62,020 bases of DNA from Escherichia phage ArgO145: the sequence record NC_049918.1; one strand, 5' to 3'. The position numbers are program-made. The stretch's first letter is position 1; every line of letters begins with the position of its first letter. This document shows positions 6,001 through 9,000 of the stretch, one piece after another.

Positions 6001-9000
6001 TTCTTTTCTGAATAATGTAGTCATTTCTTACCGCCCTTTCAGGCGGCCTCCTGATGTTTTGAGGGTGCAGAAATCCCTCCGGTTAAGGATTAAATTTTTA
6101 ACTAAATTTAATTATTCAGGCGCGATAAGCTGTTCCGCACAATCCAGCAATGCTTCTGTCGCTTCCTTAAGCGTTACTGTATCGCTATCATCCAGTCCTG
6201 CAACTTTTTCGTACCTGACAAACGCCGCGCAAAGCTCGTTAAACAACCCCGCCCGTACTTCAGCCAGGAAAGCGTCGGTGGCCGGAGTTTCAGGAATCCG
6301 TCTCCTCATCCGTTCTATTGCATGATTGAACCCGAAATCTTCAGCAAGAGATACGTCATCCATATTGTCATTGTCGTCCTCAATATCCCGTGGTTCTGGA
6401 ATTGCAGACTTTATTACCGCATTCTCCGCCGCCAGCGCCACAAGATTAGCTTTCAGCTCTGCAATTCGTTTGTTTTGGGCTTCCCGTTCATCCAGTAGTG
6501 CCAGCGCAACATTTGGATTAAAAGCAGCAATAAATTCAGCGTTTGCATAAGCCTGAACATCTGTTTCAACCAGGCAGTTAACATGACATTCTGCAATTAC
6601 GCCACCGGGCTCTCCTTTCCATTTTTGACAAACAAAAACTCCTGTTATATTCCCATGCTGATTGCCCGATGTATGCCCTACGATGTAGCATCCTTTAGTT
6701 GCTTTCTCTGCTGCTTCACGCAGCGCCTGATAGTCAATCTCGCTCATTCATCGCCCCACTCATCACAATATGCTTCGACCGGATTTTTTCCTGCTTCATA
6801 ATCATCACGCCATGCTTCAGCATCAGCAGCACTGCCACCACGTAACTCTGCATATTCCATTAACAGTTCATGCCATTCTTCAAAACTGACGCTGTATTTA
6901 GTTGAACCAAAATCAGCCATTTTGTTCTTCCTCTTCGTCTTTTATTTCGTGATATGAATAATTGCAGTAGTTAAAGAAAATATCTTTTGCTTCGTCATGT
7001 ATTTCATCAGGCGTCGCATCATCATCCACTTCGAATTCATCCTCGAAATCTCCACCGGCTATTCCCGTTTCAATAATTATTTTAAACTTTCGCATTTAAC
7101 TACCGCCCTTTCGGGCGGCCTCCTGACATTAATCGTTGTGGTAACTCATGGCTTCATTTGCAACATCAACCGGATCAACCTCCCACCAGCAATAATTTGG
7201 TGCGTTTCCTTCAGGTGTCCACGGTTCTAATTCATTTTTTGCCGCATTCTCATCGCCAGTAATTTTAAAAATCTGCTCAGAGAATTTTCTTGCCCACTCG
7301 TTATATTTTTCCGCATTAATGGCTTTCTGTGTATTTAACATAAATATACCTCCAGTTCAGGATTAGATTTTATTTACAGCGCTAAATTTATTTATTCAGT
7401 TCTGGATTTTGTCGCCCTGCGTATCCGCGCTTTCGCGTTACGTTCAATCTGAATTAACTTTTCTATATTTTTCCGCCTTTCCTGTTCCTCCTGGCGCAAT
7501 AGCCTTACATCATCTGCCAGTCTGGTTTCTCTTTTCGCCACAGAGAGCATCCAGTCAAACGGCTCCACAACCGCACCGCAGATTTTACAGCGGACCTGGC
7601 GCTCTTTTTCGTCAACCCGAACAGAGGCGTGATGACAATATGGTCTTTCCGATGGCTCATAAAGAAAATTAACCTGATTACGAGGGTCATCCTCTTTTAC
7701 CGGAAATAAAACGATATTGCTTAACTCATCCTCTGGTTTTATTTCCATGCTCCTCTCCTTTGATGCGAATGCCAGCAAGCCAGTTTCTTATGCCGATATA
7801 TTCAGCGTTCCTGAAACCGCTTTTTACATATATAAATGGCAATCGAAGATTGTGACCATTGACTGCTAGGTAATCTTTACAACCCTGTTCGGTGAAACAG
7901 CAGGTAACGAATTCATCAATATCTTTCACAGCAACGCGCCGCCATTTTTCTGGTGGCTCCCGAAAGTTTTCATGAAGTAGTTCGAGACGACGACTTTGGA
8001 GTTTATTGGCTTCATTGCCATCTTCATCAACCCAGACAATCCGGTCATAGTCATAATCAGCATCAACAACGATTTCGCGCTTTTGATACACACAAAACAT
8101 AGGATCTGACGTTATTCGATTATCCTGTGTTCGAATATTTTCACCGATGATGCCAAACGAATCTGGTGCAGATTTTGTCTGCATCTCTTCGATACGTTCA
8201 GCCATCGCAGCACACTCTTCAAAGTTGCTTAATGCTTTTCGCTCCCATTCGGCGCATTGTTTTTCCAGTTCTGCTATGTGCTTACTTCCATCCGAGATAA
8301 CGCCCTCGTAATACTCACGCTGCTCGTTGAGTTTTGATTTTGCTGCTTCAAGCTCAACGCGCAGCTTCCCTACCGTTAGCGCAATATCCTCGTTCTCCTG
8401 GTCGCGGCGTTTGATGTATTGCTGGTTTCTTTCCCGTTCATCCAGCAGTGCCAGCGCAACATTTGGATTAAAGGCAGCAATAAATTCAGCGTTTGCGTAA
8501 GCCTGAGCATCTGTTTCAACCAGGCAGTTAACATGACATTCTGCAATCACGCCACCGGGTTCTCCTTTCCATTTTTGGCAAACAAAAACTCCTGTTAAAT
8601 TGCCGTGTTGGTTAACAGATGTATGCCCTACGATGTAGCTTCCTTTAGTTGCTTTCTCTGCCTTTTCACGCAGTTCCTGATAGTCAATCTTGCTCACTGG
8701 TTGCCTCCTTTGTGGAGCTGCGCTGCGATGCACGAAAAAAAAGATTCCCGCGTATGACAGTTAAGAGCTGGTGCGAAAGCCGCGTTAGGAACGGCAGCAT
8801 CACAGCCGTCATCGATATAGAGCGCAATTTTTTTCTCCAGGCGCGCTTTGGCTTCCTGCAACTGCATACCCCGGCACGTACGCGGGATATACTCAGCAAT
8901 TTGAGCGATAGATTTTTCGTTCTGTTTAAACATGCTTCACCTCGACAGGCTTGATTGTGTCGATCAGCAGTCTGCGGCGCGTATTTTCTGCAAAGTGGCG

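Follow-up and report, generated by a model that had tools for sequence, protein, structure and literature searches.

A direct repeat in Escherichia phage ArgO145 corresponds to the shared N-terminal module of two Ea22-like genes that were probably joined by recombination in a short linker

The lambda and Shiga toxin (Stx) phage Ea22 proteins have been described as early, oligomeric and pro-lysogenic (PMC7093339, PMC10834534), with a three-part architecture composed of a short N-terminal part, a coiled coil and a variable C-terminal domain (PMC10834534). Escherichia phage ArgO145 (sequence record NC_049918.1, analyzed here over a stretch of 62,020 nucleotides [nt] that we refer to as the window) encodes two Ea22-like genes, hereafter A and B, whose products belong to the same Pfam family as Ea22 of lambda and of the Stx phages 933W, Phi24B and P27 (PMC7093339, PMC10834534). 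As in those phages, both genes lie in the exonuclease-integrase interval of the early leftward operon, and their products likewise carry the conserved start at the N-terminus and the LLDERE stretch. The 5' regions of A and B form a direct repeat, and we consider it highly likely that this repeat is the N-terminal module (N-module) of two paralogues that were joined by a crossover in a short linker, and that it is usable for recombination.

Counted in ungapped register, the two copies of the repeat (6481-6747 and 8431-8697) match at 244 of 267 nt (91.4%), are directly oriented in the same reading frame and are offset by exactly 1,950 nt. The binomial tail for this number of matches is ~1e-106, excluding chance as the source of the repeat, and automated repeat finding in positions 5000-11000 returned a single long direct repeat (6481-6755 versus 8431-8705; 275 nt, 91%). 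On the minus strand, the similarity runs from the start codons of the two genes (ATG at 6747 and GTG at 8697) to codon 89, in the LLDERE stretch, and identity drops sharply beyond that point; the encoded proteins are 86% identical across 95 residues and show no relatedness further on. The longest perfect block within the repeat measures 40 nt (6558-6597), followed by blocks of 26, 23, 22 and 21 nt. Nineteen codons differ between the copies, 11 of them synonymously and 8 non-synonymously, and 23 diagnostic sites tell copy A from copy B. The first-pass annotation of this DNA, which had reported a direct repeat of about 92% identity between Ea22-like 5' regions 1.95 kb apart and had recognized in it the shared N-terminal coding part of two directly oriented Ea22-like genes, is thus borne out, and the much lower identity on exact alignment that it had named as refuting its observation did not materialize over the homologous 267 nt. 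The extent that it assigned to the repeat (6463-6747, 285 nt) is right for the core and too long at one end, with 87.7% identity over that span and 18 non-homologous bases at 6463-6480.

Comparison with related phages and prophages assigned the two copies to different sources. Copy A, which comprises codons 1-89 of gene A (6481-6747, minus strand), matches its counterpart in the prophage of E. coli O26:H11 11368 at 100%; copy B, comprising codons 1-89 of gene B (8431-8697, minus strand), matches its counterpart in phage PA2 (NC_028449), again at 100%. The matches extend well into the flanks: the segment at 4248-7776, encompassing ParDE, HNH, DUF4014, gene A and four small genes, is of the O26 prophage type (99.7% over 3,529 nt, and 100% over 5000-7776), and the segment at 7753-11600, encompassing gene B, two small genes, PAPS reductase, DUF2303 and beyond, is of the PA2 type (100% over 3,848 nt, up to the point where the fetched PA2 locus stops). 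In PA2, B is the sole Ea22-like gene and is followed by two unrelated small genes; the O26 prophage harbors gene A and the four small genes, with a different 153-residue (aa) gene in the place of B. The 24 nt at 7753-7776 (minus strand) belong to both 100% blocks, and this linker, which reads GCTGGCATTCGCATCAAAGGAGAG on the gene strand, encodes AGIRIKGE. The PA2 protein ends in AGIRIKGE and the O26 gene product in AGIRIKGEEHGNKTRG, so that window B, composed of a PA2 body and an O26 tail, points to a crossover within the 24-mer.

Since each copy and its own flank are 100% identical to a different phage that holds only that copy, and since the two blocks join at the linker, these comparisons show, at the level of sequence, that the pair was assembled by inter-phage recombination and not duplicated in place. 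The earlier description of the repeat as created by duplication accordingly gives way to one in which PA2-type and O26-type blocks, each with its own copy, were joined at the 24-nt linker. The last eight residues of B, EHGNKTRG (7726-7752), are not found in the PA2 parent, overlap the start of a zinc-ribbon-like gene, and evidently came from the O26-type neighbor through the linker crossover; apart from this longer tail past the linker, gene B equals PA2 YP_009180903. The sister phages LC645442 and LC645446, together with strain 95-3192, present a third allele in the position of B, with a lambda-like short N-terminus and the same tail, indicating that the slot upstream of the four-gene cassette is polymorphic.

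Several further arrangements were observed in relatives. In strain 95-3192, the Ea22-like gene in the B slot is interrupted by an annotated IS3-family element (L001, 5480-6693), and in IMG/VR contig L032 an uncharacterized insertion of ~1.3 kb (~2395-3703) cuts the corresponding protein to 118 aa. Three other IMG/VR contigs (L021, L027 and L031) carry the small-gene cassette (equivalent to 7095-7776) twice, at 99.8% and ~92% identity, with the two cassettes flanking a chimeric Ea22-like gene of 239 aa, which indicates that units composed of small genes and an Ea22-like gene can stack in tandem.

The linker itself is widespread. The 24-mer GCTGGCATTCGCATCAAAGGAGAG occurs exactly in 24 of the 33 loci that were fetched, including the end of lambda ea22 (551-574 of the lambda locus), and only once within the window. 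In both the window/O26 context and PA2, its AAGGAG lies 6 nt ahead of the next gene's ATG; the 24-mer of lambda is not followed by a start codon. The linker also encodes the C-terminal K/RGE motif, the significance of which has been called unknown (PMC7093339). The coincidence of this motif with a nucleotide-conserved linker that, in several phages, places AAGGAG 6 nt before the next start suggests that the motif may reflect constraints acting on DNA or RNA, and not on protein function. The K/R-G-E tripeptide is a literature observation on four proteins (PMC7093339) and not a family definition, and neither protein of the window ends in it: A terminates in LIAPE, and in B the IKGE is followed by EHGNKTRG.

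A second short element was observed in the same operon. It spans 26 nt and occurs twice on the minus strand (6029-6054 and 7101-7126), with the sequence TCAGGAGG-CCGCC(Y)-GAAA-GGGCGG-TA, and its layout comprises AGGAGG, a GC stem of 6-7 bp with a GAAA loop, 6 nt, and then the ATG of the DUF4014 or DUF7167 gene. The two occurrences differ by one C/T at which pairing is retained (C-G versus U-G), and their fold energies are -14 and -16 kcal/mol (z ~ -2.2). The element looks like a hairpin-bridged ribosome-binding site, as predicted from these features, and it also constitutes a mosaic junction in relatives such as IMG/VR contig L025, in which the 70-aa gene of the cassette is absent.

To place the repeat within its family, we aligned 39 members retrieved in a homologue search with the 89-aa module, a search that gave only proteins of up to 155 aa, many of them partial, and that is therefore not usable to survey C-terminal domains. 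In the alignment, a conserved start (aa 1-18) is followed by one of at least three alternative inserts (aa 19-68), A and B of the window having the same one, and then by a conserved NAEFIAAFNPxVALALLDERE stretch (aa 69-89), a coiled coil with either of two openings (AQNKRIAEL... or RNQQYIKRRDQENEDIALTVG...), and diverse C-termini that often end in AGIRIKGE. Insert type and coiled-coil type occur in all four pairings (in A, B and the family members P0083 and P0089), indicating recombination in or near the conserved stretch, which is where the repeat of the window ends. The alignment thus shows the Ea22-like family to be a patchwork in its sequences. Consistent with this, the N-module matches 18 different PHROG families. 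The module is also common: the 267-nt sequence was found in 786 of 5,426 complete E. coli genomes (1,074 places, up to six copies per genome), the 89-aa sequence was found at 273 places in 234 phage records, and plasmid ptetA carries two Ea22-like genes back to back. A large share of the Ea22-like proteins with this N-module are labeled partial and lie on contigs no longer than a few thousand bases, down to a few hundred, for which reason the multi-copy module probably breaks short-read assemblies.

Evidence that the module recombines in nature was obtained from a junction-pattern scan, in which an 18-nt anchor was placed on each side of a 267-nt gap. The parental junctions served as controls, and the recovery of five IMG/VR loci with the A junction (A body and A upstream) and three with the B junction (B body and B upstream) indicates that the method works. 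The reciprocal junction, joining a B-type body to the A upstream region, was found in 12 IMG/VR loci. At the 23 diagnostic sites, all parental loci are purely A or purely B, and 10 of the 12 reciprocal loci present one of three chimeric haplotypes. In six of these contigs, B-type sites give way once to A-type sites, between 6610 and 6628, a pattern as clean as this arising in only 2 of 26,334 site orderings; three switch between 6557 and 6598, bracketing the 40-nt perfect block; and one has a patchy A/B haplotype. The switches fall in blocks where the two copies are perfectly identical. The ten chimeric contigs show just 0-1 other differences from the window copies, and they encode 315-aa proteins with an A-type N-module on a B body (96% identity). 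The remaining two loci (L023 and L029) carry a diverged allele with 23 further differences and are not informative for typing. These single-nucleotide polymorphism (SNP) haplotypes imply that recombination within the module between A-like and B-like genes has taken place repeatedly in nature, in agreement with the earlier idea of the module as a recombination substrate.

Taken together, these data show how the pair arose. A PA2-like genome, contributing B and everything upstream of it, recombined with an O26-prophage-like block (the four small genes, A, DUF4014, HNH and ParDE), with the join falling in a 24-nt sequence that ends many Ea22-like genes. Within the resulting phage, host RecA or the RecT/YqaJ pair of the phage could occasionally recombine the two copies. 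Such an event would delete 1,950 bp, removing the greater part of B, all four small genes and the beginning of A, and would leave one in-frame gene that equals A except for some B-type residues in its N-terminal part. A phage with this deletion is expected to be viable, given that PA2 lacks the A block and the O26 prophage lacks B. For RecA, Shen and Huang reportedly established in 1986 a minimal processing segment of ~25 nt, and the repeat, which is direct and in frame, contains perfect blocks of 40 and 26 nt. Two studies of phage recombination describe phage annealases as tolerating diverged sequence and as largely escaping mismatch editing (PMC2327257, PMC3945230).

Several observations weigh against a substrate role for the repeat within this phage. 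A megablast search for the predicted deletion product (6030-6580 joined to 8531-9130) found nothing covering at least 80% of it in 5,426 complete E. coli genomes or 50,697 phage records; likewise, the junction-pattern scan recovered no deletion junction (A body and B upstream) in GTDB genomes, IMG/VR or JGI metagenomes, an absence from databases that is compatible with rare deletion events. Furthermore, window A is purely O26-type and window B purely PA2-type at all 23 diagnostic sites, which implies that neither copy has been converted by the other since they were joined, and the same A/B structure is kept in two independent records (LC645438 and LC645443). The 9% divergence of the copies and their 40-nt maximum perfect block in turn predict a low rate. 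The natural chimeras could all have arisen in crosses between phages, the data fitting this origin and one within a single genome equally, and there is no direct sign that the two copies of this phage recombine with each other. The first-pass annotation had proposed that recombination between the copies deletes the intervening genes and makes a chimeric gene, and had suggested PCR for deletion junctions and comparison with related prophages. The in-frame chimera and the loss of 1,950 bp follow from the geometry of the repeat; the product itself appears nowhere in the five collections, and what comparison with relatives yielded instead were the reciprocal-type junctions of the 12 IMG/VR contigs. 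The nearest colinear case to the deletion product, on plasmid ptetA, was rejected as a diverged relative with a different N-terminal insert.

These negative results are what would be expected if the repeat were a passive by-product of paralogues with an N-terminal domain conserved at the protein level, with no recombination role and no meaningful deletion rate. We regard this account as rather doubtful, albeit one with a real chance of being correct: it fits the absence of the deletion product from all five collections, the lack of conversion between the window copies and the synonymous lean of the substitutions (11 versus 8 codons), but protein constraint leaves unexplained a 91% nucleotide identity that stops abruptly beside unalignable sequence, chimeric haplotypes with one clean switch (2/26,334 orderings), and the presence of all four combinations of insert and coiled coil. 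Two direct copies 1.95 kb apart at 91% identity would also result if an Ea22-like gene had recently been duplicated in tandem (segmentally) within this phage and the 3' parts had then diverged or been replaced. Such a history is nevertheless very improbable. The similarity is limited to codons 1-89, beginning exactly at the start codons and ending sharply at codon 89, the upstream contexts of the copies differ, and each copy with its flank is 100% identical to a different phage holding that copy only, with the block junction in the 24-nt linker. Finally, we give next to no credence to an assembly artefact, that is, a collapsed or misjoined repeat in an assembled prophage. Many database Ea22-like proteins are indeed partial and lie on short contigs, but two separate phage records contain this 5.1 kb at 100% identity, both halves are independently present in complete genomes, and an IS3-interrupted variant of the two-gene layout resides in a complete chromosome.

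A more ambitious interpretation would hold that the Ea22-like locus is a selected cassette-shuffling array, as opposed to passive mosaicism, and to this we attach little credence. Were it true, the N-module, the 24-nt AGIRIKGE/Shine-Dalgarno (SD) linker and the SD-hairpin elements would be fixed recombination handles, used to swap or stack variable C-terminal effector domains with, for instance, host-interfering or counter-defence activities, and retaining two paralogues with the same N-module would be functional, for example in forming hetero-oligomers or in directing two effectors to one target. Such an array would be akin to Rhs and contact-dependent inhibition (CDI) loci, where conserved segments allow the exchange of orphan toxin modules.

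The reading of the repeat as the shared N-module of two paralogues joined at the linker draws on the annotation of both genes. Gene A (6112-6747, minus strand; 211 aa) matches PF13935 (Ead/Ea22-like) with 135 bits, phrog_368 over its full length and phrog_27745 at its C-terminus, and its ATG overlaps the stop of an upstream 58-aa open reading frame (ORF) in the sequence ATGA. Gene B (7726-8697, minus strand; 323 aa) matches PF13935 with 137 bits, as well as phrog_250 and phrog_3205; its GTG start shares bases with the stop of a 79-aa ORF lying upstream (GTGA) and is preceded, 6 nt upstream, by the SD sequence AAGGAGG (8704-8710). Against a PF13935 cut-off of 27 bits, the two matches cover profile positions 1-138/139. 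A longer GTG start for B at 8733 was rejected in favor of the GTG at 8697, which has the AAGGAGG, the overlap with the upstream stop and agreement with the PA2 annotation. In identical DNA, RefSeq labels gene A a pseudogene (6235-6747, corresponding to 4236-4748 in the O26-prophage locus), described as "incomplete; missing C-terminus". The ORF of gene A extends to 6112, however, and a homologue on plasmid ptetA matches it along its full length at 52% identity and shares its C-terminal region, from which we infer that gene A is probably intact.

The small genes between A and B, counted as three in the first-pass annotation, are four ORFs, each an annotated coding sequence (CDS) in identical RefSeq DNA and all on the minus strand. 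They encode a 58-aa protein (6744-6920; phrog_519), a 60-aa DUF7167 protein (6913-7095; PF23768, E 8e-15; phrog_1997), a 70-aa protein (7129-7341; phrog_4659) that is missing from some relatives, and a 118-aa zinc-ribbon-like protein (7392-7748; phrog_1621) with a weak, below cut-off match to PF08271, the start of which (7748) was taken from the RefSeq annotation of identical DNA. Scans of A, B and the four small genes against NCBIfam and PADLOC gave zero matches, and sequence comparison of A and B with PDB chains gave only chance-level matches (E >= 0.1). The AlphaFold2 model of the N-module reached a best predicted local distance difference test (pLDDT) score of 80, with only 61-71 in the beta region, and its best Foldseek match in the PDB (Tad1; E 0.28, template modeling [TM] score 0.27) is not meaningful. 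AlphaFold modeling of residues 1-110 of A places a long helix at residues 78-109, behind the N-module. By analogy with lambda Ea22, the A and B proteins are probably oligomeric early proteins that favor lysogeny.

The 5.1 kb around the repeat are 100% identical in the Stx2a-converting phage records LC645438 and LC645443, which are classified in Oslovirus ArgO145, and the window is a Stx2a-converting Oslovirus. Genes A and B both lie on the minus strand between the genes for RecT (13213-14163) and the YqaJ-type exonuclease (12527-13216) and the integrase gene int (145-1389), in a leftward operon that runs towards the integrase. Its members include RecT, the YqaJ-type exonuclease, DUF2303, a PAPS-reductase-like gene, the Ea22-like region, DUF4014 and an HNH gene, and the region further comprises a ParDE pair, an ORF6N antirepressor and an MT-A70 methylase; it is the counterpart of the lambda exo-xis region, the home of ea22 (PMC7093339, PMC10834534). 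The ParD/ParE toxin-antitoxin pair (4331-4893) belongs to the O26-type block and lies on the plus strand, opposite to the leftward early operon within which it is found. At 16872-18988 (minus strand), a 216-aa ORF with a BsuBI/PstI restriction endonuclease helix-turn-helix (HTH) domain, in which the catalytic-domain profile is covered over its first 53 of 154 positions, lies directly downstream of a 489-aa Eco57I-type methylase ORF; the two may represent an early-region restriction-modification module that has decayed or been split.

The locus provides a base-resolved example of how lambdoid and Stx phages shuffle the parts of an accessory gene family, with three independent crossover or conversion patterns in a 267-nt module and one junction in a 24-nt linker, and as such it is consistent with the homeologous-recombination model of mosaicism. 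In practical terms, the module is multi-copy in many genomes of E. coli that produce Stx (STEC), with up to six per genome, and can mislead prophage typing. Beyond such bookkeeping its significance is small, although the coincidence of the linker with KGE may interest Ea22 researchers.

Among the known systems, lambda Ea22 shares with B the coiled-coil sequence ERNQQYIKRRDQENEDIALTVGKLRVELE and the AGIRIKGE-encoding 24-mer. Lambda differs in having one copy, and in lacking the ~50-aa insert (aa 19-68) that forms most of the window repeat. Neither A nor B has a C-terminal domain related to the one solved for lambda (no PDB sequence match), and their ends also depart from those of known Ea22 proteins, A having no K/RGE and B having eight residues beyond KGE. 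The layout of the window is more closely paralleled in 933W and Stx2 phage II, which likewise harbor two direct paralogous Ea22-like genes with a shared 5' part and differing C-terminal parts, each preceded by a small zinc-finger gene (DksA-like in 933W). The 933W genes lie at 4103-4876, in the exo-xis region, and at 59301-60200, next to attR, and their copies share ~460 nt, the first 300 at 100%, compared to 267 nt at 91% in the window. They are ~6.3 kb apart across attP/int in the circular genome, and hence at opposite prophage ends, whereas the window copies are 1.95 kb apart in one operon. The depositors of NC_004914.3 had annotated the 933W-type repeat as a repeat_region, "arrangement c/d/e; region IV". 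Paired Ea22-like genes that share an N-module are therefore an ordinary instance of a kind already known in lambdoid and Stx phages.

The mechanism is likewise nothing new in principle relative to lambdoid mosaicism. Short conserved "boundary/linker" sequences are said to have been described in lambdoid phages by Clark et al. in 2001 and Juhala et al. in 2000, and the block junctions of the window similarly lie in short shared sequences, namely the 24-nt linker, the 26-nt SD-hairpin element and the N-module. Martinsohn et al. 2008 (PMC2327257) and De Paepe et al. 2014 (PMC3945230) present homeologous recombination at conserved segments as a source of lambdoid mosaicism, and the phage of the window encodes a RecT-family annealase and a YqaJ exonuclease. 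Compared to lambdoid mosaicism in general, the joints described here lie in and at the ends of a single gene family, shuffling protein domains in addition to genes.

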